Assembly: GCA_964255285.1 (NCBI GenBank)
Contig: CAXUUL010000014.1
Location: 49,403 to 69,402 of the forward strand
Source: Ionaspis alba
Lineage: Eukaryota
DNA: 20,000 nucleotides
Direction: 5' to 3'
A program made the position numbers and the translations under genes. Each line of letters starts with the position of its first letter. Position 1 is the first letter of the stretch. The notes under the pieces are model-generated. The model did not search any database. It saw only the letters and a list, made by a program, of their open reading frames with translations, and was not told the DNA's origin. Below, piece by piece: positions 1-20,000 of this stretch.

Positions 1-868
1 ATTTTAGATTTCCGGAGACCAAGTCAAGCTGATCGTAGGTGAGATCTCCATCCCACGCGTGTATAGCAGGCGCATCAGGGCGATTTTTGACGTGCCGGCT
101 GATTTCTCCGTGAACGGTGGACTCCACACTCTGTCGGATACCGCTGTTCCACGCAACAATTTGGTCAAGGTCGCGGCCGCTCAAGGACCGAACCTCACCA
201 ATCGTTTGTTTCGGGTTTTCCAATAGGCTCTGAAAGAGAGTGCGGCAGGTGTTGCCCACGTTGAGTATCGCCTCTTTGGTATAGTCGGAGCTTTTGAAGT
301 GGATCTCCAGTATCAATTTCCCCAACCAGTCATTGAAGACTGCTACAAGACCGTTGTGGTACATCTGGGGCAAGTTAGCAAATGGGTGAATGTCTATGGA
401 GGTTGATAATCTCACATGTCGGTGTTCATTCAGCATCTCTCTTTCCTCTGACTCTTTGTCACTACATAGACCTCGTGGCTTCGACTGAGTGTAGAGCATC
501 TTCGTGTTCAGCAGAGGAGTGGCTTCCCACAGGGTGCTGTCTACGACAGATGAAACATGTGCGTAACAAAATTCAACGCTTGAAACGGTCTGTGACTTGG
601 ATATTACTGCAGAGCAGACGTAGCCTGGTTGTGTGTGGAGTTCACCTTTGCTGGTATTGCCCTGTATGCGAAAAGCGACGGTCTCATTCCCTGTATAGAC
701 GCGAAGCACGAGAGCCCAGAGAAGCTCATACAAGTTCAATTGTCCTATGGCTTTCTGAAGTGTATCGAGCTTCGCTTTGTCATTGCAGAGTGAGAAAGTC
801 AATGCTTGAGCCTTACCCGCATGGGTAGTTATTGCATAATCGAGGGTGGGAAATAAACAAGGCTCCAT
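1..868 (-). CDS. Non-ribosomal peptide synthetase, 5' part (degenerate N-terminal C domain, then start of adenylation domain); continues beyond window start
   Basis: Absent from the ORF track because it has no stop in the window. Open frame from ATG 868 (in-frame upstream TAG at about 956-958): MEPCLFPTLDY...LYELLWALVLRVYTGNETVAF...SLLENPKQTIGEVRSLSGRDLDQIVAWNSG...VHGEISRHVKNRPDAPAIHAWDGDLTYDQLD. PCLFP and WALVLRxYTG are typical of fungal NRPS starter C-domain remnants. PDAPAIHAWDGDLTYxxL is the A1 region of fungal A domains. Probable 51-nt in-frame intron 365-415 (GTGAGA..GCTAAC..CAG). Confidence 0.93.
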   Translation of the reverse strand, partial: MEPCLFPTLDYAITTHAGKAQALTFSLCNDKAKLDTLQKAIGQLNLYELLWALVLRVYTGNETVAFRIQGNTSKGELHTQPGYVCSAVISKSQTVSSVEFCYAHVSSVVDSTLWEATPLLNTKMLYTQSKPRGLCSDKESEEREMLNEHRHVRLSTSIDIHPFANLPQMYHNGLVAVFNDWLGKLILEIHFKSSDYTKEAILNVGNTCRTLFQSLLENPKQTIGEVRSLSGRDLDQIVAWNSGIRQSVESTVHGEISRHVKNRPDAPAIHAWDGDLTYDQLDLVSGNLK

Positions 869-2988: not shown

Positions 2989-4139
2989 TTATAGAGTTCC
3001 ATGCTCAACCAAATATCCGCCATCAACTGGGAGAATCACTCCGTTCAGGTACTGACAGCAGGCCACAAACACTACTGCGCTCGCCATATCCATGTGGGTC
3101 CCAACTCTCCCGCTGCTGATGTCTTTAACAGCCGGCCAAGACTCTTCGTCCAGTGTGCTCTTGCCATTCAAACTGGGCGTGCCAGCGGTTATCTCCGACG
3201 GAAATACTCCCGGTGCGATCGAGTTGACGCGGATGTGCAGCTTCATCCTTGCAATCTCCGTCGCAAGCATCTTGGTCACATGGATCGTCGCTGCCTTGGC
3301 CGCGTTGCTCGCAAAATGGTTGAGAGACGTTCTGATGAGGCCGTTGATGCTGCTGATGTTGATTACGCAGCTCTGGTAACCAGGGTGCTTGGGACTGCTG
3401 CCGCGGGCAAGGAGCGGGAGGAAGGCTGTTGTGACAAAGTAATGTGAGGCAGCGTTTGTGCGGTAGACATTTGTCCAGTCGTCAAAGGTGGCATTGGGAT
3501 GGTCGAAGAGATTCGCTCTTGCTTGGGACGCATCTTCGCCTTTGGGTTGCTGCGACGCGCTGTATATGCCCGCATTGTTTATCAAGAGATGTAGAGCCTC
3601 CTCTTTTGTTTCGACTTCATGAGCTAGGCGTCTGTGAAGAAGAACCTGTTAGATCGCTGTCCGAATTGCTGTAATGAGTAACAAACTGCCAAGGAAGCGT
3701 TTGTCTTCTTCTCCTGCCCCTTCTCCTTCGCCGCACCCTCTTACGTTCACCATCTCCACGACCAGCGCCTCGCGTCCTTTGACTGGGAAGTCGATCGTGA
3801 TAGACAAGACTTACTTGATGTCTTCCTTGTTAGCCACATCGCCCACGAGCGGAATGATCTCGCCCCTAATATTCTGGCTGTACACGTCCGCAGCCGTACG
3901 CAACTTGCTCTCTGTCCGCCCAACAATATAAACCTTTGCTCCATTGACTGCGAGAGCCTGTGCAGCCATCAATCCTATTCCAGTGGCCCCGCCCGTAACC
4001 AAAGCCACCTATGTGGAGGGTTAAACTCTATAACGCCGAAATTCTTCTGCTGGAAACACCATACCTTGTGCTCGACGTTGAAAAGAGAATACAGCTCGAA
4101 GTCTGCATTGTCTGTTGCCATGTTCTCTGAGGTGGCCAT
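2989..4139 (-). CDS. Short-chain dehydrogenase/reductase (classical SDR fold), about 303 aa, catalytic Tyr replaced by Ser
   Basis: Exons 4139-4065, 4008-3815 and 3631-2989, with GT-AG introns in consistent phase. Motifs: VALVTGGATGIG, VYIVGRT, LINNAG, VINISS, HFASNAAK (YxxxK position), RVNSIAPGVFPSE, VDGG. Alternative start at ATG 4121. Confidence 0.92.
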
Positions 4140-5447
4140 AGACGTCTCGTGCTGTCTTTCGATGTTGCTTTCTGAGTGTGGAAACAATTCAAAAGCTCAA
4201 GATATGCTCCGATAATACGGGAAGGACCTCTGCTTTATATAGTTGACCAGCATGGCCCAACCAGTAGGCCCGAAGGCGCTGAACCTAAGCCTGTTTTGAA
4301 GTTTCACCATCATGCAGAGTTGGCGTATCAGTTCATCTGGAAAGAAGACGCTCTTCGTTCAAACCGAAAGAACGCTTATGACTATGCTATTGACCATCAG
4401 TTTGGTTTCTAGCTGGATAAGCGGGGTTTTGATGTTTTCGTTTTCCCCCCCAACTAAATGTAGATTACTAGAAAAAAGAATAATGAGCTAAACCCGATGG
4501 AGATTAAGTCCTATGAACTCCAACGTCTTAGCAGCATCGACACAACCCTGATATGCTTCTACTGTTGCTCCGTCACTGAATCGTTGCAGTCCTGATGCAG
4601 TAAAAAGCAGACACTTTGGTTGTGGTTGTGAACCTTTAAGCGTGCAGCAAATGAGACGAGGTGCAAGGGAATAGCGGAGTTCAATCTCAAGGCCATCCTG
4701 CACAGGCTAGACGTCCACTAAGAGTATGCGGGCATGATGCAAAAGACTCCTTGCATTGAGCGGCTCACTTGAAGCAAAATGTCGTGCGGCTCGACTGCTC
4801 ACGTCTGAACTCGTTGTTTCCTAGGCAAACCGATTGTCTCTTACGGGGTCGCCGTCAACTATTACTATTCTTTCGTTTTGAAGGTGTAATCCAAATTCGC
4901 AAAGGAACCACTACTGGGTATATCTGGACACACTCACCACGATTCTCGTTGGCGCCACGGTGTAGTCCTACAACATGATCAGTAGAAGCTTTAAGGATAA
5001 GCTGGAGTCGCCCACTAAGCGATGGTAGACGTTTTGGACTGGCTGGGCCCGTCTCCATTAAAAGTTCCACATCTCTCGACGAACGATGCAAATGAAGAGA
5101 AACACTTGGAGGACCGGGAGAAGTAGGATGAGGTGGTAATAACGGATGAGAGGATTGGAGAGCCATACCACCTGAAGGCTTGCAAGGTAAGTGGATCTCA
5201 AGGCTTTCTGGAGTATGTTGCCTTCGATCTTCCGACTCATGGTGATTTCTGCCTTGCACAAGCGCGCTGAACGCATAATTGTGGGCATGGCTACTAGGTC
5301 GACCATATATGATAGTGTTTCAACAACTAGTATCAATTTCTTGCGACGCTGTGCAGTCTGTATCTATGCATTCCAGCGACGCTTATTCCGGCGATCGCCA
5401 ACCAAGAAAACCCACCTTTCTATCTCGGGCTTTTGTACTATGGGTCA

Positions 5448-6870
5448 CTAGACAGACGCTGCTTCAATAAGGGTCTCGCCTGCACGCGTGTCAGTGTGAA
5501 TCCAGCCATCTTTCTCCGAGACAGCTCACCTCCATCCGGAAAAAGTGTCTGGGCAGTATAGAATGTGCCACCCCTCCCAGCGAGGAAAAGAATTGTGGCT
5601 GCCATGTCAATCTCATGCCCGGCCCGGCCTGCAGCGTTGGTGATAGCTCTCGTCAATTTCGACTTTTGGTCGGGACCTGAGCCACCGGCGGTCATCTGAG
5701 AGCGATTGTAAGCGTGCCTGCCGTGATAGACTATTCTTATTGAGGCGGCTAGGGACTGGATGACAAACCTCGGATGGGAATGTTCCAGGTGCAATCATAT
5801 TGACCCGCACCTTTGTCTGAGAGAACAAGTGCGCCAACATGCGACTCAGGTGAACAAATGCTGGGCAAACATCAGCCTAGGAATCGTGTCTTATCTTTAT
5901 CTGGCGGATTTTCCAACACCTACCGGCTTTTGAAGCCCCGTAGCTGATGTGGCCCCGCGTGGTGTTCTTCAAGAAAGCCGAGTTGCTTGTGACGTTGACC
6001 ACGCTAGAGGTATAACCGGGTATAACGTCACATCCTTGTGCCAATAGCGGAAGAAAGCCGATTGACATGAAATATCCTCCCATACAATTCGTCGTGAAGT
6101 TCTGTTGCCAGCTGACGGGGTCTGACTTCCAGAAATGCTCGGAGATGGCCACCGGATCCTGGAAGTCGGGAGCCGGATTTCCTGCAAACTCGGTAGCGTA
6201 GTCTCTTGCAATACCCGCGTTGTTGACAAGAAGCTGGATGCCGTTTGGCTCTTCGCTTGAGACTTTGTCCACGAGTTTCTTGATCTCGTCCTTCTTGCTA
6301 ATATCAGTAACGATACTAGAACAACGTCGAAGTCAGCAGAAACGAGCTGGATGTCTCTTCCGGCCAAGGGATTTTCCTTGCAATCATGGGAGCCTTTACG
6401 GGATGATCTTGCCAGGGCCGGTGTTGTAAAGCTCCATCACTAAGCGCGGGTGTTAGGACAAAGTGTACAGACGAAAGATTGGTCCCGCATGCTCGGTCTC
6501 GTGCACTGAGATTGGAGCAGTCTAATAAGGATACTATTATACCTACCAACTTTCAGCGCCTCCTCACGAAGCTCAGCGACGTAGACCTTCGCCCCATTGG
6601 ATACCAATGCCTCGAAGTTCTAAGTCAGTCCATGCCCTTCCGAAGTCGAACTGTTCACAATCTCGTGGTGCTTCAAGTCTGTATTACCTGCGTGATCATC
6701 AACCCAATACCACCTGCGCATGGCCATTAGCCTTGCGTTTCTTCGCCTTTGCGATTAGCTCCACAAGATTACTAACTTCCACCTCCTGTAACAACGGCAA
6801 CGACGTGGGAAACGCAGAATATTTTTGAGCTCTGGAGGTCTACATTTGTTCCTGGCTTTGCGAATGCCAT
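5448..6870 (-). CDS. Short-chain dehydrogenase/reductase, about 301 aa, same subfamily as the neighbouring SDR
   Basis: Eight exons: 6870-6777, 6713-6688, 6610 (or 6619)-6547, 6439-6400, 6315-5924, 5860-5769, 5695-5530, 5479-5448. Motifs: VAVVTGGGSGIG, ALVSNGAKVYV, LLVNNAG, VVNVTS, SYGASK, RVNMIAPGTFPSE, FPDGG. Confidence 0.92.
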
Positions 6871-9069: not shown

Positions 9070-9973
9070 AACAATGATGAATCAACGGATGGGCTACAAC
9101 TGTAGAGGAACAAGGTTTTCGTTCAGAGAAAATTAAATCAGCCTACCGTCCGCTTGCCCCTTATGGTGCTTCCATCCAGGACCAAAGAGGGTATTCGCAC
9201 CTAAAATTTCCTGTCCAATATAGGCCATATTAGAATTAGGGCTTGAAGTACATACACCCCTGTGTTAGTCCCTTAGCTGCCATAAGGCACATATGTAAAT
9301 GCGATCTTGGCTAGCATGGGGAAGTTGAGAATGTACCCTGTAAACAACATATGTAGGCCATATCGGAACAAGAATCCTAGGTGTGACTACATAACCTATT
9401 ACACTGCTTCAGAGATGTCCTGTTGTTGAGCTGTGCAACTCCGATCTCGCTTACGATGTGAATATCAGGGACAATAGTTCGCGCAAGCGTCTAGCGCCGA
9501 TCACGATTTAGAGTTCTGACTGGGGCGTTCTGTTGTACTGTACAGTAATGAAAGTTACATGTAAACTACAAATCTGGTGTAAAGCCTTGGACTACGAAGG
9601 TGTCTTTCAACACTGCACCACACAGCTCCCCGGCATAAGATTCCTCGTAAGAGTACTACAGGGCTTTGACATAAGCGAGTGAGCTGGCGTGGGAGTATAC
9701 CAGTGCCCACTTTTTCTCCCAACATTTCAAGCGACATTTGCGGTGGAGGGGCGTTTATCCTCACCAGTCGTAGTCTACATGTATGCTACATTCCCTAATC
9801 AGCTTGGTATCAACCTACACCTGCAAGTTGCGAATCATATGACTAACGATTCGTCGATCGAGTGGTGATCAAGGCCACCATGGCATTCACATCTAGCCTA
9901 CAACTATCTCTGATATCCCCACGCAACAAAACATCTTGCCATTACACAAAACGAGTTACGAACAAGCCAAAGA
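9070..9973. promoter_or_regulatory. Divergent promoter region between the P450 and Sur2-like hydroxylase A
   Basis: Head-to-head gene arrangement. Contains the direct repeat TAGGCCATAT (9221-9230, 9354-9363) and TACATGTA palindromes (9556, 9776). No site is functionally proven. Confidence 0.55.
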
Positions 9974-11263
9974 ATGGCAGTCAACGCTACTTCCAGCTTC
10001 AAACCCTACACCTTACATCCGATGCCGCCTCTGGTTCCCGGGATATCGGATCTACATCTCGCTCTATTCGTCCCTATTGCCGTCCACTGGCTCACCTCGG
10101 GGTGCTTCGAAATTTGTGAGCGAACCGGCTGGCTGGGGCAATATCGGCTGCATACAACCGCGGAGGAGCTCACGAGGAATCGTGTTACACGGCTCGAATG
10201 CCTACGCGTGACGCTTCAATGTCAGGCAAGTCTATTCTTGTGGATTTGGCATTATGCAATACCTGATAAAATACAGGGCCTCCAGACACTCATGGGGCTT
10301 GCGCTAGGTATGCTTGGCGAGGGCGATGTCACGGGAAATGAGGACTACGATCTTGCTGTTTGGATCAGCAGAGTGCATGCTGTCTTTGCAGCACTCCCCA
10401 CACTACTCTACCTCACTGGCGTCGATTTTAAGAAAATGGCGATCACGCCATCTGGATTCGGGTCTTTCCTTCCTACGATAGGACACCCTGAACTTGACAT
10501 GCACAGCATCGAAGTATCGATAGGCACATTGCTGTACCGGTATATTGTACCAGTCTTCCAGCTTGCCTATGCACTGATTATCGCGGATGCCTGCATGTAC
10601 TGTCTTCATCGCCTAGGACATACGAACAAATGGATCTACAGTAAGTCCTGAGACCTCAACCAAAAGGTGTTCAGCACATTGACAAGTCCTAGAACATATA
10701 CACTCCCAACATCATAGGCTGTACGTCCCATATTCATGGGGTGGCTCGTACAATCATCCTGTCGATAGTTTATTCCTTGACGGTCTCAGCTATGGTATCG
10801 GCTGTGGGGTTTCTGGCTTGTCAAACAGGCTGTCTATTATACTTTTCGCCTACTCATCATTCAAGAACGTAACTGACCATTGTGGGTACCTGTTCCCGTG
10901 GAATCCGATCCGCTCGGTCACAGGGACTGATGCCGGCTTCCACGATGTCCATCACCAGAGTTGGGGCTTAAAGGCAAGCTCTCGTGCATCCCACCCAAGC
11001 TGTGAAGGCTAATTTCGACCAAGACAAACTTTGGAGCCCATTTGGCTCTCTGGGATCGTATGATGGGAACTTATTTTGCCGATGAAAAGCAAATTTCAAG
11101 GCTTCGTATGAAGAACCGTGTTGCAGCTCAAGACCTCGTATCCGCACAGGGCGTTAGCACGGACGCAGCGGACTTGGTTCTCCCTCAATGCGACGAGAAG
11201 GCTCTAGGCGGAGAAGGTGGCGGTGACTCAAAGGCTGTAATAACCAGGTCTTTCTTGTGCTGA
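9974..11263 (+). CDS. Sphingolipid C4-hydroxylase-like (Sur2/BasA family) membrane di-iron hydroxylase, paralog A, about 378 aa
   Basis: Exons 9974-10225, 10277-10640, 10693-10973, 11024-11263. Sur2-like N-terminus (YTLHPMPPLVPGISDLHLAL..QYRLHTTAEELTRNRVTR). His boxes HRLGH, HSQHH and HDVHH, plus RLYVPY, YNHP, DHCGY and WDR. Confidence 0.93.
10226..10276 (+). other. GC-AG intron (intron 1 of hydroxylase A)
   Basis: CAG|GCAAGT...CTGAT..ACAG|, 51 nt, in frame. Paralog B has a GT-AG intron at the same codon position (14518-14571). Confidence 0.75.
10974..11023 (+). other. GC-AG intron (intron 3 of hydroxylase A)
   Basis: AAG|GCAAGC...GCTAAT..CAAG|, 50 nt. Required to join WGLK to TNF..WDR. Paralog B has a GT-AG intron at the same position (13775-13826). 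Confidence 0.85.
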
Positions 11264-12090: not shown

Positions 12091-13184
12091 TTAGGACTCA
12101 ACAGCTTCCTTCAACGACACTTCCAAACCAGTAAATCCTGGCCTGCCGTATCGCCGTAGTAGCTCCTGAGCTCTTTTTGTATCCACAATCTTCAAGTCCC
12201 TCGGTGCATCCTTGATCCTTTCGAATTGCCTACTGCCATCGCCGTAGCCTTCAGCGTCAATTTTCTCCATCAAAACCGCCGTGTCGTTGAAATTGAACGG
12301 GCCCGCGAAAGCCAAAAGCCTTTCCCCTATAACATCCTCTTCAAGTAAAGCCGCAATGTGTAACAGCGCTGTATCTGTCACATTGACGTAATGTTGAGGC
12401 GGGAAGTGATTCCTTAGAAGTTTGAGCGTCTCCGCATCCCCTTCCCACATCTTCTTGTACCAGCCCCCTGTCGACGCTGGCTGCTCCTTGGACAAAATCC
12501 TCCCAATGTTGCAATTTGGTAACACGGCATTGAGGACAAAAGCAGGTTTCTCTTCCTGCATAAAGCGCCAACACTCTTTTTCCGCTAGTGTTTTACTCGC
12601 CGCATATACGGCCAGCTTTCTGTCGTCGTTATAGGGCGGAGGTGCCCATGCGGCTTCAACGTCGGCGTCATTCCAGGAGGATACGTCAATATGGAACTTC
12701 TTGTTCGCTATCGGCGCGGTCGCTGCAGCGGATGAAGACGTGTAGACGAAGCGTTTGACGCTTGGGTTGCGCGCCGCTGCGGTGAGGGCGTTCTTAATTC
12801 CAGACAGCACCATTGGTAGCACTTTATGCGGGTCCGGATTCAGAGTGAGGTCGGAGGCAACGTGTATGACGCCTGCACAGCCTGTCGAGCCTCAGCATGA
12901 CAGTGGTGAGCAGTGCGCGTTTGGAGTACAATCTGACCTTTCATGACCTCGTCGAAGGCACCGCCCGTAGCCATGTCCTTAACGATCTGGACCTCGAACG
13001 CATCCTCGCCGTACTCCTCATCGAAGAGTGCGTGCATATAGTCGGCCTTGTAGGCATCGCGAACGGTACCACGAACACGGTAGCCGTGCTCAAGGAGCTG
13101 TTTGGCGATATGGCTGGCGATATACCCGTTCACGCCTGTGACAAGGACGAGGGATTCTTTGGGGATTGCTGGCATGGTCTTCAT
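12091..13184 (-). CDS. NAD(P)H-dependent carbonyl reductase, extended SDR (aldehyde reductase II/Gre2/Ari1-like), about 345 aa
   Basis: Exons 13184-12938 and 12881-12091. Motifs: VLVTGVNGYIASH, GYRVRGTVR, GVIHVASD, VKRFVYTSSSAA, VYAASK. Confidence 0.93.
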
Positions 13185-13612
13185 TATTAGCCTTGCAACC
13201 TTAGGCTTCTCGAAGGTTATAAGAGGGTTGAATATTGAGATATGTAGAAGTTACTCGAAAAGATTCTGGCCAGCATGACGAGGAAACCGTGACGCGGGTG
13301 TTTTCTGTGACGTAAACCGCAGCCGATTACATTTATAGTACGTGGTAATAAGTATCTACACAGGTCCGTACACGCCAAGGATTAACTAGGCCCACACTCT
13401 CCCCGTGCCAAGGCATCAGCCCTCCTGTCATGCAGGGGTTTTAAACCGGAACCGATTTTGCCTTTACAACGTTTTCGCTACATACTGCATGTTGAGTAGA
13501 CTATGAATGAGGAAGATGTGAGAGTTATTGCTAATACCCTATTGAACGGACAGTGGTGGAAAAGATGTCCGCAAGAGTTTCACGTGAGCATTACTCGCAC
13601 TGCCAATTGGGC

Positions 13613-14832
13613 TCAAGCCAATTTTTCACGGAGATTTGACTTCCTCCCCCTTTCCTTTCCAACCATCTCCGCTGCCTTGCGGTCCCGCGTATATAATCTA
13701 GATGCAGCTTCGGTGTCCGTGAACTCAGTCCCCAGAAGGCGATCCCAGAATCGGAAGTGAAGGGCAAAATTGTTCTGTAAGATATATTAGGAAGAAGGGT
13801 AGGAAGGGGATGAAAAGAGGAGTTACCTTGAAACCCCATCTCTGATGGTGTTTGTCGTGATAAGCAGCGTCGACTGAGGTAAAGAGATCCATTGGATTCC
13901 AAGGAAAGGTATATCCGCCGTGATCGGTACAAGCTTTTGCGGAGGAAAAGGCCGAGAATACCATACTTTCCCTCAATGTCATCCCGGAACCGATGACAGC
14001 AAACACAAAGGCTCCGACGCTGAGAAAAAGGCTCTCGATAGGGTCGTCATAGATTCCGCCCCAACTATAAGTCACGTTCAATCCATGATGACGGGCGTGA
14101 AAATGTTCTACACCATAGCATTGGTCAGTGATCTCTACAGACGTGATCTCACTTACTGTACAACCATTTGTTGCTGTGCTCTGCCCGATGAATGAAGAAG
14201 ACCCACGTATCCGCTAGCCATAGAGCCACGTAGAGTCGTAATGCAGGTATCAGTCCGTAGTAAATGAGTTTAGCCGCTAACAACTCCGCCTCTTGTTCCG
14301 CTCGACCTGACGCGAAGAAAGTTGTGACAGAGACGGAGCGGGAAACGGTAGCGATGAGCGCCTTAACGTTAAGGCCAGAAGATGACAGTAAAGTAAGAAT
14401 CGCTTGTCCAAGAACATGCACTCGACTTGCCCAGATCGTTATATCGCGGCCTTCGTTACCAATTGTCTCTACCTCGGAGAATGCTCCGAGTACGATTCCA
14501 AGACCGGTCTGTAAAATCTAAGGCTTGGAGATTAGGCCAGCTAAAGGCAATGGAAGCAAGTTATAACGTACCTGCACTAAAAGTACGCCACGGAGACACT
14601 CTGATCTGCTGATTGTGTTTTTCGCCGTTTCTTCTTCACTGGTATGAATTCTGTATTGTTGGAAAAACCCAAAATGCTGGAAAATCTCGTAAACGGCAGC
14701 AGTAAGCCAATGTGTGACGACAGGGACCAGTAGTGAAAGGCTGTAATCTGATATTCCTGAAATGAGTGGCGGTCTTGGACGTAAAACATCTTGAAAAGCC
14801 ATGGAGCCTTTTTCTACCATTGTCGATTCCAT
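13613..14832 (-). CDS. Sphingolipid C4-hydroxylase-like (Sur2/BasA family) di-iron hydroxylase, paralog B, about 354 aa
   Basis: Exons 14832-14572, 14517-14157, 14107-13827, 13774-13613. PRPPLISGISDYSLSL, QYRIHTSEEE, His boxes HRAEH, HARHH and HDKHH, DHGGY, FWDR. All three intron positions match paralog A, and exon 3 is 281 nt in both. Confidence 0.93.
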
Positions 14833-15428: not shown

Positions 15429-15833
15429 CTAAGGCCTCGTACCATCCGACTCGACCGGCACCAATTCGCCGGGCATCCACCACACAATCGCAATTTTGCC
15501 CTCGCGGTACTGATAGAACATATGCTCCATGCACTTGACTGTCCCCTGTATGTTGCGTCCCATGAACTCGCGCAGAGGCGTGCATCGGAATTCAATCCTG
15601 CATCCCACCCGCTGCTTAGCCTCGTCCACGAGCAGCATTGATAGTTCAAAGCGGAGGTCTGGGGCCGCATCGATGTCGTCCGTGAGAAGCTTCTCGAAGT
15701 CGGCCAGGGGCATAGAAACATCGTTGAGGGTGACGATGGGGTGGATGTGGTCGCTCAGTCCAGGGAAAGGCCGCTTATTGATAGCAGCGACGTAGGAGAG
15801 GTAGGTTGATTCGAGGGAAGAGGACAGAGCCAT
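15429..15833 (-). CDS. SnoaL-like (NTF2-fold) polyketide/ester cyclase, 134 aa, intronless
   Basis: From ATG 15833: YLSYVAAINKR..HPIVTLND..IDAAPDLRF..LLVDEAKQRVGCRIEFRCTP..FMG..EHMFYQYREGKIAIVW. This matches the SnoaL/ester-cyclase pattern PDLxF..F.G..E..FY.f.dGKI..V. Confidence 0.88.
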   Translation of the reverse strand: MALSSSLESTYLSYVAAINKRPFPGLSDHIHPIVTLNDVSMPLADFEKLLTDDIDAAPDLRFELSMLLVDEAKQRVGCRIEFRCTPLREFMGRNIQGTVKCMEHMFYQYREGKIAIVWWMPGELVPVESDGTRP

Positions 15834-16230
15834 GCTGGGGATGCTGTCTTGTCTTTCGGAGGGGGTCTCTTGTTGTATCGCGAATGGAAGGTTGGACACT
15901 GGCTAGAATGGCTCGACAACCTGCTCTTCGAAGATATGGCGCTCGCGAAGCTAGAAAGTGGCAGGTAGTTCGCACTTAATCGACTTTCCTTCGCAGCCAT
16001 GTCTGGTTGAAAATGCGTGTGGGTTGAGGATCCCGAATGGCGCTGCAGCTAACAAAAGCAGATTTCGAATACGACAAGGCTTATGCCGCCAGTCGAAGGG
16101 TGCAGCACGAAGCGTCAAGTCGTGCTGCCGCTACCGAGTGTAAACAGCACTACCAAACACTGCAGTCTCACAATCACGGCGACTTGTCAAACCTCTCAAC
16201 CACATTCACCCCTCTGACCTCGAAGCCAGG
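15834..16230. promoter_or_regulatory. Short divergent promoter between the SnoaL-like gene and SDR3
   Basis: Head-to-head genes with start codons about 400 bp apart. Confidence 0.5.
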
Positions 16231-17282
16231 ATGTCCGTCCCATTCTCTATGCTCGGTGGCTTTCTCTACCGCCAGCTCCTCGTCACCCCTCCGGTACCTA
16301 GGACTCGATTTGACGGTAAAACCATCATTGTCACTGGCTCTAACGTTGGCCTCGGCCTCGAAGCTGCTCGTCACTTTGGTCGTCTTGGTGCCGCCCGCGT
16401 CATTCTCGCAGTCCGTGATCTTAAGAAGGGCGAGGCTGCGAAGCAGTCTATTGACCAGACCCTCAGCCGCTCTCCGTCTCCTGTTACCGTTTGGAAGCTT
16501 GACCTCTCTAGCTACGGTAGCGTCCAGGAATTCGCGGCGCGTGTCGACAAGGAGCTCGATCGCGTCGACGTGGTCTGCGAGAATGCGGGCATCGCGACTG
16601 GAATCTTCCGCCTCACCGAGAGGGATGAGAGTACCATCACTACTAATGTCGTTAGCACGTTCCTGCTCGCATTCTTGCTGCTACCCAAGCTAAAGGAAAC
16701 GGCACAACGTTTCAACACGCTCCCGACTCTCACTATCACTTCTAGCGAAGTTGTAAGTCATCGCCTCGGTTCCCTATCGGGGCCTCATCCCCTAGCCAGT
16801 CGCTAAAACGTTCTGTCGTACAGCACTCCTTCACGACCTTTCCGGAGCGGAACGAGCCAGACATCTTCGGTACGCTTTCCGATAGATCTAAAGCAAATAT
16901 GGCCGATCGTTACTACGTGAGCAAGCTGCTCGAAGTTTTTGGTGTCCGTGAGATGGCTTCGCGTACCGGCTCCTCTTACCCAGTCACAATCAACTGTCTT
17001 AACCCAGGCTTCTGCCATTCAGAGTTGGGAAGGGAGGCGGGGTGGTATTTGTATATCATGGGACTGCTGCTGGCGCGCTCGACGGAGGTTGGCAGCCGGA
17101 CAATCGTGGCGGCGGCAGAGGCCGGTCCGGGGACGCATGGAATGTATATGAGCGAGAGTTTGGTAACGGAGCCGAGCGAGTTCGTGAGGAGCGAGGAAGG
17201 CGCACGGGTGCAGAAGAAGATATGGGCGGAGTTGACGGCCAAACTGGAGAAAATTATGCCAGGTGTCACGGCCAATCTTTGA
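16231..17282 (+). CDS. Short-chain dehydrogenase/reductase, retinol-dehydrogenase/WWOX-like subfamily, about 326 aa
   Basis: Exons 16231-16752 and 16824-17282 (GTAAGT..CAG intron). Motifs: TIIVTGSNVGLG, VILAVRD, LDLSSY, CENAG, TSSEVH, RYYVSK, LNPGFCHSEL. Confidence 0.94.
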
Positions 17283-17512: not shown

Positions 17513-18896
17513 TCACAAGTGTGGCTCGATGACAGAGCCGTTGATAACAGTCTCAAGTAGTCCGTTTTCATGCTTCGCTTTGAGTTCTGAGGTTGCCACT
17601 AATGCCTCGGCCTGAGTTTGAAACCCGCAGAAGACCGCGATTGACTGCTGAAGTGTTAGTTACATTAGAAAAGCTCCGAAAAAATTTCACTCACGTCTTC
17701 AGTTTTGGCCTTTCCTCTCCCATTAGTCGTATAAGCTCGATAGAACTTGGCTTTGTCATTGATATAGCTCAGCCGCGTGGAACCTGCGGAGAGAGTTTTC
17801 GCAGTACCGTGGAATACGGAACGTGCTTCAAGGCTCTCTTGCGAATCTGTCATTGAAGACAACTCTTCCAACACCTCCCCAGGCAGGGTCATAGCATCGA
17901 CGCCAGCCATGCGGATAACCTCGTCGGTCGTCATGAAAGCGCACGACTTGACTTTGGTAGGGATCCCATGCTGTCTGTAGTATTGTTGGGCTTGTAGAAA
18001 GAGATCAAGGATCGGATCTGAATCGTGGTAGCTGCAATCATCAGCAAGGCATGATTGAGCCGGCAGAGCCCACGTACGACGTATCCAAGTGAGCACGAAG
18101 CTCGTAAGCGAAGGGTGAGATAGAGATACATCCTGCTTCGCCAGCCAAGACGACCTGCTCCATCGTGAAAAGAGTGGTTGCCAATGTCTTGATACCATCG
18201 GTCTTCAGTCTACTGCACGCTTGTAGACCGTCCCAAGTCGCTGGCACTTTCATGATGAGCCTAGACATGTTAAAATCTGGCTCCAAGACGCGACAGATTT
18301 TGTGGAAACCTGAAAAGCTGTCTGTTAGCAAAAGGTGACTCGGGAAAGGTTCACATGGACCAACGGTGGCCGGTTTCGAAGACTTTTTCGGTATCCCAGG
18401 CATACAACGGGTTACACATAACGTGGATCGATCCGGAAATCGATGGGACAATGCGGAGCGAAAGGCTAATCATCTATACCGCTATCAGCTGTGGAATACC
18501 TTAGGCTTATGTGAATGCACTACGTACAGCAATCTCTACGGCAAGCTCTTCGACAGAGACGCTCACATGCTGTCCTTGGAGCTGACGAGCGAGTGCCACA
18601 GATTCCTTCAGAAGAGCCGCATTCTGCGGGTTGCACAATTGACTATACGCCTCCCACTGGGCACCACCGTTAGTATTTTGTCAGTAACGTCAATCCAACT
18701 CACTCGCCTGATTGGAAGTACAGTCTGAAAACGGGCCAAGGTCCGTGGCGACTACAGAGTGATTAGCGTCGCAGACCGAATCTTTAATCTCTGTTTCACC
18801 TTTCAAGTCCAAGCAATCGAGATCAACCGAAGATTTCGAACGCAGATATGCCAAGAGATTGACCGGCGATGCCGGTGGCGAAGTACTGGAAACCAT
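17513..18896 (-). CDS. Transaldolase/fructose-6-phosphate aldolase family (class I aldolase fold), divergent, about 359 aa
   Basis: Seven exons: 18896-18800, 18751-18708, 18656-18528, 18473-18365, 18309-18078, 18031-17695, 17644 (or 17647)-17513. Motifs: VDLDCLD, DCTSNQ, IMKVPATWDG (Schiff-base Lys at 18248-18250), GIKTLATTLFTMEQ, AGCISISPF, AGVDAMTL. Confidence 0.9.
18657..18707 (-). other. GC-AG intron in the transaldolase-like gene
   Basis: AATCAG|GCGAGT...ACTAAC..CCCAG|TGG. Only the GC donor keeps frame (TSNQ-WEAYSQL). The GTGAGT donor 4 nt further in leads to a TAG within 5 codons. Confidence 0.75.
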
Positions 18897-19425: not shown

Positions 19426-20000
19426 TTAATCATCTCCTAGACATCTTGAAGATCCTGTCTGCAAGAGAAGTTCCTCAAGCGTGGTGAAGTTAAGATTCTT
19501 GAAGAATTTGCATCGTTGGCGAATTGTCTTCTCGCGAGGGCATGCACCCGATCCTGTGATCATCATCTCCTCTACACTTGCTAGATAGAGCGCTTCCAAG
19601 TTCTCAGCTGTAGGAGGCAGTAGAGTATCGCGATCGATCTGCTCCTTTGACCTGTAAGTCTTCTCCATGGGTCGACCTGGACCAGGTATCAATTGAAAAC
19701 ATCATTGAAAGAACAAAGCTTCACGAACCGTAAAATTCCTCCATGACTCTCGCCATTTCGTTGAAGGTTGACCATTGACCAGTGACATAGGTTGTGCGCT
19801 CCTGAGAATGTAAGATGCCAGTCGTGAACGCTCTGGCCAGGAGAGTAACCAACCCACTCCGGCGCACTGAGTAGCATGATGAGCGCCTTTGCAATGTCCT
19901 GCGCACTTGTAAAGGATTGCACTTCATCACCAGTGCCTCTGATACATGCCCTCCATCCGTTTGGATCAATTGGAAATTCATCCGGGATTGAAGGCATGTA
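19426..20000 (-). CDS. NmrA-like / isoflavone-reductase-like oxidoreductase, 3' part (5' end outside window)
   Basis: Exons 20000-19854, 19801-19729 and 19676-19426 join to give ..FPIDPNGWRACIRGTGDEVQSFTSAQDIAKALIMLLSAPEWERTTYVTGQWSTFNEMARVMEEFYGRPMEKTYRS..FFKNLNFTTLEELL. This is the typical C-terminal half of atypical SDRs (GxGD..fTs..DiAka..W..tyv.G...T.nE). Confidence 0.8.

Follow-up and report, generated by a model that had tools for sequence, protein, structure and literature searches.

A transaldolase-like protein of Ionaspis alba with neither known acid-base arrangement of its family, and the fungal clade that contains it

Two acid-base solutions are known in the transaldolase family (Pfam TAL_FSA), a glutamate in the transaldolases and a glutamine/tyrosine pair in the fructose 6-phosphate aldolases (FSA). 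Neither is found in the predicted product of a gene at positions 17513-18896 (minus strand) of the stretch of Ionaspis alba DNA analysed here, 20,000 nucleotides of contig CAXUUL010000014.1 (GenBank assembly GCA_964255285.1, positions 49,403 to 69,402 of the forward strand; hereafter the window). As judged from the sequences surveyed, this protein (the window protein) is a member of a large family found only in fungi, within which its combination of Met and Phe at the two acid-base positions is derived and clade-wide. Its likely role is the formation or cleavage of a carbon-carbon bond in a natural-product pathway.

The closest described enzymes are the classical transaldolases of subfamily I, such as TalB of Escherichia coli (PDB entries 1onr and 1ucw) and yeast NQM1 (3cq0), which share the Pfam family and a barrel of ~330 aa (template-modelling (TM) scores of 0.82-0.86). 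The window protein has in common with them the equivalents of Lys132, Asp17, Asn35, Thr156, Ser176 and Phe178 (TalB numbering throughout), but at ~25% identity it carries Met96, Leu154, Glu181, Ala226 and Met228, adds Asp15, Gln36, His94 and Tyr/His180, and is encoded by a clustered gene of patchy distribution. Enzymes of the FSA subfamily V (1l6w) resemble it in lacking Glu96, and the fungal family nearest to its clade carries the FSA-type Gln and Tyr together with Ala at TalB-176. The window protein departs from FSA in carrying Met and Phe at those positions and in being a TalB-like protein of 360 aa as opposed to ~220 aa; the match to FSA is partial (PDB E-value ~3e-8), with FSA chains covering only residues 137-259 of the homologue P0009.

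Engineered variants of TalB offer a further comparison. Glu181 of the F178Y/R181E variant (3kof), selected for non-phosphorylated acceptors, is also present in the window protein (PMC3962226). Gln96 and Tyr178, as engineered among 3kof, 4rz6 (E96Q/F178Y) and 9qpk (E96Q/F178Y/R300E), occur naturally in all 125 members of the fungal Gln/Tyr family described below, 93 of which also have Glu181. No solved or engineered example of Met96 combined with Phe178 was found among the PDB matches listed.

Recruitment of a transaldolase-family enzyme to a natural-product pathway has a precedent in LmbR of lincomycin biosynthesis, which moves a C3 unit from fructose 6-phosphate or sedoheptulose 7-phosphate to ribose 5-phosphate (PMC5854111). 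Unlike what is proposed here, LmbR is a bacterial enzyme acting on sugar phosphates, and the parallel drawn is one of described function. Transaldolases have been sorted into five subfamilies, and in the accessible part of its source this scheme makes no mention of a fungal Gln/Tyr or Met/Phe group (PMC7092467). In the full-text literature, supplementary tables excluded, no TAL_FSA-family enzyme was found described in a fungal biosynthetic cluster, and the literature searched contained no description of a natural Gln/Tyr family on the long TalB scaffold. Matches to 'transaldolase' in natural-product papers were pyridoxal phosphate-dependent L-threonine transaldolases, which are unrelated.

Active-site residues, predicted fold and gene model

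Active-site residues were assigned by HMMER alignments to solved TalB chains, using P0009, a homologue 73% identical to the window protein, and a 10-homologue profile. The alignments returned the six retained equivalents listed above and five replacements: Glu96 by Met, Asn154 by Leu, Arg181 by Glu, Ser226 by Ala and Arg228 by Met. Asp17 of TalB pairs with the second Asp of a DxD motif. The column assignment is unambiguous because of the alignments to the E96A chain 1i2o, in which the Met pairs with the mutated residue 96, and to the F178Y/R181E chain 3kof, in which the Glu pairs with the engineered Glu181. An earlier note on this DNA had aligned the protein to TalB, and the alignments bear it out: the Asp17, Asn35 and Lys132 equivalents are retained in motifs that stand in the translation (VDLDCLD, TSNQ and MKVPATW), Glu96 reads Met in IHVMCN, Arg181 reads Glu in ISPFAYE and Arg228 reads Met in CAFM. 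Its further statements, that the protein has Phe and not the Tyr of FSA, and thus neither canonical acid-base set, and that the phosphate site has been lost, held as well. In TalB that site consists of two Arg and one Ser (PMC3962226), which are Glu, Ala and Met in the window protein, so that of the hallmarks of a classical transaldolase it keeps Asp17 and lacks both Glu96 and the phosphate site formed by Arg181, Ser226 and Arg228.

Membership of the TAL_FSA superfamily itself is clear from the family profile, the Schiff-base lysine and, on the homologue P0009, the barrel fold. Pfam PF00923 matches exon 5 (E 2.5e-15, 57.1 bits) and exon 6 (E 3e-08, 33.8 bits) above the cut-off of 27 bits, and P0009 matches it with an E-value of 1.6e-32; the three short exons scanned singly gave no Pfam match. 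AlphaFold2, given an alignment of 108 sequences headed by P0009, produced a model of this homologue with a predicted local distance difference test score of 97.2 and a predicted TM-score of 0.93. The top Foldseek match of the model is TalB (1onr_A; E 7e-23, TM 0.82/0.85, 25% identity), followed by further subfamily-I chains, while the matches to short transaldolases and FSA-type folds extend over just a portion of the model. A TalB-like TIM barrel is thus predicted with confidence for a 73%-identical relative of the window protein.

It is very improbable that the gene encodes a standard pentose-phosphate transaldolase or a back-up version of one, as in the yeast TAL1/NQM1 pair. Such a role would agree with the TAL_FSA match, with the best PDB profile match, which is yeast NQM1 (3cq0, E 7.7e-27), and with the grouping by annotation of the Ustilaginoidea virens orthologue UV8b_06058 with carbohydrate-metabolism genes in a report that found it expressed and reduced after rapamycin (PMC12028740), the sole mention of any orthologue in the full-text literature searched. 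However, Glu96, Asn154, Arg181, Ser226 and Arg228 are all replaced, identity to TalB is ~25%, its occurrence is patchy and restricted to particular clades, not universal, and the gene lies inside an apparent cluster. Pentose-phosphate flux through the window protein is therefore unlikely.

The gene is intact and lies in fungal DNA with short introns. It is bounded on the minus strand by a start ATG at 18896-18894 and a stop TGA at 17515-17513, and its pieces appear as separate open reading frames (ORFs). The predicted splice model, in which exons were joined by coordinate and intron borders were set on the genomic sequence and on homologue junctions, has seven exons and six introns and gives 1083 nt encoding 360 aa with no internal stops. 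In order, the introns measure 48, 51, 54, 55, 46 and 47 nt; five of the six are GT-AG and intron 2 is GC-AG. With six introns, one of them in frame and one of them GC-AG, a plain reading of the ORFs misplaces the junctions slightly.

Following the profile alignment on the spliced model, exon 1 (18800-18896) carries the ATG, the Asp17 equivalent (18818-18816) and, at TalB-15, an additional Asp (18824-18822). Intron 1 (18752-18799, 48 nt, GT-AG) is in frame and is predicted to be spliced: its removal restores the spacing seen in homologues such as P0009 and P0014, and its retention was rejected on the same fit. The TSNQ motif with the Asn35 equivalent (18713-18711) ends exon 2 (18708-18751). For intron 2 (18657-18707, 51 nt) the GC-AG border was chosen because it alone yields the junction of TSNQ and WEAY seen in full-length homologues; a GT-AG alternative was rejected, as it would remove two residues present in every one of them. 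Exon 3 spans 18528-18656. Exon 4 (18365-18473) encodes IHVMCN, with the His at TalB-94 and the Met at the Glu96 position (18419-18417). Exon 5 (18078-18309) encodes the Schiff-base lysine (18250-18248), the Thr156 equivalent and ISPFAYE, which comprises the Ser176 equivalent, the Phe178 equivalent (18112-18110), the Tyr at TalB-180 (18106-18104) and the Glu at the Arg181 position (18103-18101). In exon 6 (17695-18031), the CAFM motif supplies the Ala that replaces Ser226 and the Met (17934-17932) that replaces Arg228. Exon 7, with the TGA, occupies 17513-17647; moving the acceptor of the last intron 3 nt further downstream, so that the exon starts at 17644, suits the homologues P0003 and P0005 slightly better.

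A fungal family and its Met/Phe clade

A search with exon 6 recovered, among 114 candidates, 17 proteins with 62-88% identity, all with the same motifs. These relatives come from lichens of the family Teloschistaceae (Seirophora), Hirsutella, five Ophiocordyceps, a Cordyceps sp., Cercospora beticola and Ustilaginoidea virens. A HMMER scan of 1.84 billion representative sequences gave 1240 matches at E<=1e-3 and 79 at E<=1e-30. In a profile search the named matches among those listed were all fungal, from Ascomycota and Agaricomycetes, and were annotated as 'transaldolase' or 'aldolase'. Six longer family members were scanned for fusion partners, and all six matched TAL_FSA only.

All 181 retrieved sequences of 295-480 aa were aligned with the window protein, none being dropped. 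By the states at TalB-96 and TalB-178, the 182 sequences divide into 125 with Gln and Tyr (the FSA-type pair), 43 with Met and Phe (including the window protein), two with Glu and Phe (the canonical pair), two with Glu and Tyr, and ten with other or gapped states. Nearly every non-canonical member lacks both arginines: position 181 is Glu in 35, Asp in two and Arg in only one of the 43 Met/Phe members, and Arg228 occurs in two of the 43. The Gln/Tyr proteins, from Aspergillus, Penicillium and many Agaricomycetes, share with the Met/Phe proteins the TSNQ motif, Asp at TalB-15, Gln at 36, His at 94, Leu at 154 and this loss of the arginines. The columns that split the two groups are 96 (Met in the Met/Phe group versus Gln), 176 (Ser versus Ala), 178 (Phe versus Tyr) and 225 (Cys versus Ala), and at TalB-180 the Met/Phe clade has His (Tyr in the window protein) whereas the Gln/Tyr group has Asn. 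The clade signature, D15 D17 N35 Q36 H94 M96 N98 K132 T156 S176 F178 (H/Y)180 E181, is present throughout in the window protein as DDNQHMNKTSFYE.

A FastTree phylogeny (LG+gamma, 323 trimmed columns, rooted on two canonical sequences only) placed all Met/Phe sequences, with the window protein among them, in one clade of 47 tips with a support of 0.93; the clade also includes one Phe/Phe, one Leu/Phe and two gapped sequences. IQ-TREE returned the identical 47 tips, and in both trees the clade is nested beneath successive Gln/Tyr sister groups. Approximate likelihood-ratio test values in the IQ-TREE phylogeny were 83-99 on most backbone nodes and 47 at the node that parts the Met/Phe clade from the rogue sequence P0120. 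The Met/Phe state would thus be explained most simply as a single derived event from an FSA-type ancestor. An interpretation of the perfect coupling of Gln/Tyr versus Met/Phe as repeated co-evolution was rejected; the coupling of positions 96 and 178 counts as one event because the Met/Phe state is confined to one clade.

Conservation within the clade is high. Met96 and Phe178 occur together in all 43 scorable members and Lys132 in all 47 tips, and the window protein retains 101 of the 102 columns that are invariant in its ten nearest full-length relatives. On these counts the residue pattern exceeds chance or sequencing error, and the 101 retained columns indicate that the window protein is not a decaying copy. 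The loss of the canonical acid-base and phosphate-binding residues would be expected of a non-catalytic transaldolase fold, that is, a pseudoenzyme, binding protein or scaffold kept in the cluster, but we consider this quite improbable. The lysine is kept in every tip, the donor-site residues are nearly invariant, and, at 62-81% identity across three fungal classes, it is the entire active-site face that is conserved and not the fold core alone.

Two observations concern subgroups of the clade. P0179 (Aspergillus heterothallicus), P0020 and P0173 (A. calidoustus) form a Met/Phe subgroup with Arg at TalB-180, and two of the three also have Arg at TalB-228; an anion-binding site might have been restored there, which would suggest that substrates differ within the clade. 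The Teloschistaceae and Cercospora sequences (P0003, P0005 and P0011) fall within a group of Ophiocordyceps, Hirsutella and Ustilaginoidea sequences (P0009, P0010, P0013 and P0016) at 62-81% identity. The gene tree is thus apparently at odds with the species tree, and the cluster may have moved horizontally.

Proposed function and its alternatives

The reading that we favour, with about even confidence, is that the window protein is a cluster-dedicated class-I enzyme that forms or cleaves carbon-carbon bonds through a lysine Schiff base on a TalB-type barrel and acts on a non-phosphorylated intermediate. Catalytic activity and aldol-type chemistry are what we infer from the retention of Lys132, Asp17, Asn35, Thr156 and Ser176. 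Together with Phe178 these residues would make up a retained half-site for the C1-C3 ketol donor, and the half-site for the sugar-phosphate tail would have been swapped, with Leu, Glu, Ala and Met in place of Asn154, Arg181, Ser226 and Arg228. In transaldolases, Asp17 acts as the base for C3-C4 cleavage (PMC7092467). Studies of TalB itself suggest how the other positions could be read: Ser176 versus Ala sets the donor preference between dihydroxyacetone and hydroxyacetone, Ser176 going with the dihydroxyacetone type; Phe178 is responsible for TalB acting as a transferase and not as a lyase, F178Y raising its aldolase activity 70-fold; and F178Y/R181E gained affinity for non-phosphorylated glyceraldehyde, the use of which was improved by R181E (PMC3962226). 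By comparison with that engineered variant, the loss of Arg181 makes non-phosphorylated substrates plausible, and the half-site pattern taken with the transferase role of Phe178 is the reason for favouring a Lys-imine enzyme whose substrates would be a ketol unit and a hydrophobic, phosphate-free partner from the cluster pathway.

In such an enzyme a small ketol or keto group would be bound as an imine or enamine, and this unit would be joined to, or cleaved from, a non-phosphorylated and fairly hydrophobic intermediate supplied by the neighbouring non-ribosomal peptide synthetase (NRPS) and oxidoreductase genes. With the general base Asp17 retained, the conserved His at TalB-94 and the His or Tyr at TalB-180 would be the candidate acid-base residues; Asp17 together with one or both of them could stand in for Glu96 or for Gln/Tyr.

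A more specific version, which we put forward tentatively and think rather unlikely, would make the Met/Phe clade a natural transaldolase of secondary metabolism and a third catalytic solution of the family, evolved from FSA-type (Gln/Tyr) ancestors, with the sister Gln/Tyr family as the natural counterpart of the engineered E96Q/F178Y/R181E aldolases. The Lys-bound enamine of the C3 ketol would then stay protected by Phe178 and the lack of a proton donor, the C3 unit would be passed to an aldehyde that is hydrophobic and carries no phosphate, such as a product that the NRPS encoded nearby might release, and the acid-base role would have shifted from positions 96 and 178 to the conserved His at position 94 and the His or Tyr at position 180.

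Alternatively, the protein could be a Lys-Schiff-base enzyme that performs no aldol chemistry, such as a β-keto-acid decarboxylase, an enamine-type isomerase or a cyclase/dehydratase working in a hydrophobic Met/Phe pocket. Hydrophobic surroundings of a lysine favour imine chemistry. Both residues that transfer protons in the aldol cycle (Glu96 or Gln, and Tyr) are non-polar in 43 of 43 scorable clade members, and descent from Gln/Tyr ancestors suggests an altered reaction in addition to an altered substrate. This alternative appears rather unlikely: the base Asp17, with its role in C3-C4 cleavage (PMC7092467), and the residues that hold the donor hydroxyls, Asn35, Thr156 and Ser176, are retained, and such a donor site would make little sense in an enzyme that had ceased to bind a ketol-type donor.

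The setting of the gene also bears on its function. Within 17.5 kb, the window encodes the putative start of an NRPS, a cytochrome P450, three short-chain dehydrogenases/reductases (SDRs), two fatty-acid-hydroxylase-family proteins, a reductase and a SnoaL-like protein. The gene for SDR3 (16231-17282, plus strand; Pfam adh_short) adjoins the transaldolase-like gene and is convergent with it. The closest named orthologues of SDR3, at 72-89% identity, come from the same taxa as those of the transaldolase-like protein and are followed by generic SDRs at <=66%. In Ophiocordyceps unilateralis the SDR gene XA68_13384 carries the locus tag next to that of the transaldolase-like gene XA68_13383, on one contig of 78,645 bp. 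In O. camponoti-leonardi the two genes (CP532_3041 and CP532_3030) are 11 tags apart on one contig of 167,136 bp, and in O. polyrhachis-furcata and C. beticola they share a contig. Read from locus tags, this linkage in other fungi lends some support to a conserved cluster.

Some fungal clusters encode a resistant version of the enzyme targeted by their own product. The presence of a duplicated housekeeping-type fold in the cluster would fit a self-resistance transaldolase, yet such a copy must retain the housekeeping activity, whereas the window protein has lost the catalytic Glu and the phosphate site; and the clade, with 47 representative tips from many genera, is old and diverse, unlike a recent duplicate of TAL1. 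We regard this explanation as scarcely credible.

The preferred reading, of a cluster-dedicated carbon-carbon bond enzyme, has to be weighed against several points. Both known acid-base arrangements are absent, which leaves room for weak catalysis or for a different kind of reaction, and the full-text literature searched holds no activity data for the Met/Phe clade or the Gln/Tyr family. The fold was predicted on the homologue P0009 rather than on the window protein, the exon structure of which is itself predicted from the genomic sequence and homologues. In Hirsutella the pair formed by the transaldolase-like gene and the SDR gene is split between different contigs (locus tags HIM_05247 and HIM_11170 for the two), and synteny was read off locus tags in a few genomes. 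The NRPS, finally, is a lead: the gene start at 2-868 (minus strand), which runs off the window and is condensation-like into the start of an adenylation domain, resembles Condensation-domain clusters in the Atlas feature search (scores 0.97-0.98; in one cluster 42% of members also have AMP-binding), but its PDB match is weak (microcystin synthetase B, E 0.0076) and it has no Pfam match. The proposal in the earlier note of an aldolase acting on a non-phosphorylated pathway intermediate is accordingly sustained in part: the loss of the phosphate site, a neighbourhood of secondary-metabolite type and the conserved pairing with the SDR speak for a non-phosphorylated pathway substrate, and aldol or retro-aldol chemistry is suggested by the retained residues.

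What the survey reveals is a large fungal-only family that combines the long TalB scaffold with FSA-type residues and with Glu181, as engineered for non-phosphorylated substrates, and within it a derived clade that has neither acid-base residue and is apparently embedded in biosynthetic clusters. If active, the Met/Phe and related proteins would be ready biocatalysts for forming carbon-carbon bonds on unphosphorylated aldehydes, and they would flag an unassigned NRPS-linked cluster common to lichen fungi, insect pathogens and plant pathogens.

Other genes in the window

The remaining SDR genes are SDR1, with two exons (2992-4008), and SDR2 (5880-6332), both on the minus strand and matching Pfam adh_short. 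Also on the minus strand are the cytochrome P450 gene (7394-8816; Pfam PF00067, E 9e-24), a gene for an NAD-dependent epimerase/reductase-type protein (12094-13250; Pfam PF01370 and PF07993) and the SnoaL-like gene (15432-15902; Pfam PF07366, E 1.4e-11; PDB 3ehc, E 4e-14).

Two paralogous genes of the FA_hydroxylase family (Pfam PF04116), sterol-desaturase-like, occur in the one cluster. The first lies at 9914-11009 on the plus strand, with the Pfam match on 10683-11009 (E 8.8e-11), and the second at 13728-14517 on the minus strand; in both genes the N-terminal exon is long and gave no Pfam match. A PDB sequence search with the ORF at 9974-10648 (plus strand) gave nothing meaningful.

In the intervals 955-2900 and 4200-5800, the stop-to-stop ORFs of at least 55 aa that were scanned had no Pfam match, and these intervals may be intergenic DNA or may hold genes of unrecognised family. 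At the right end, a PDB sequence search with the ORF at 19692-20000 (minus strand) likewise gave nothing meaningful; an open frame at 19429-20000 on that strand, with no Pfam match, leaves the window and may belong to a further gene of the cluster.

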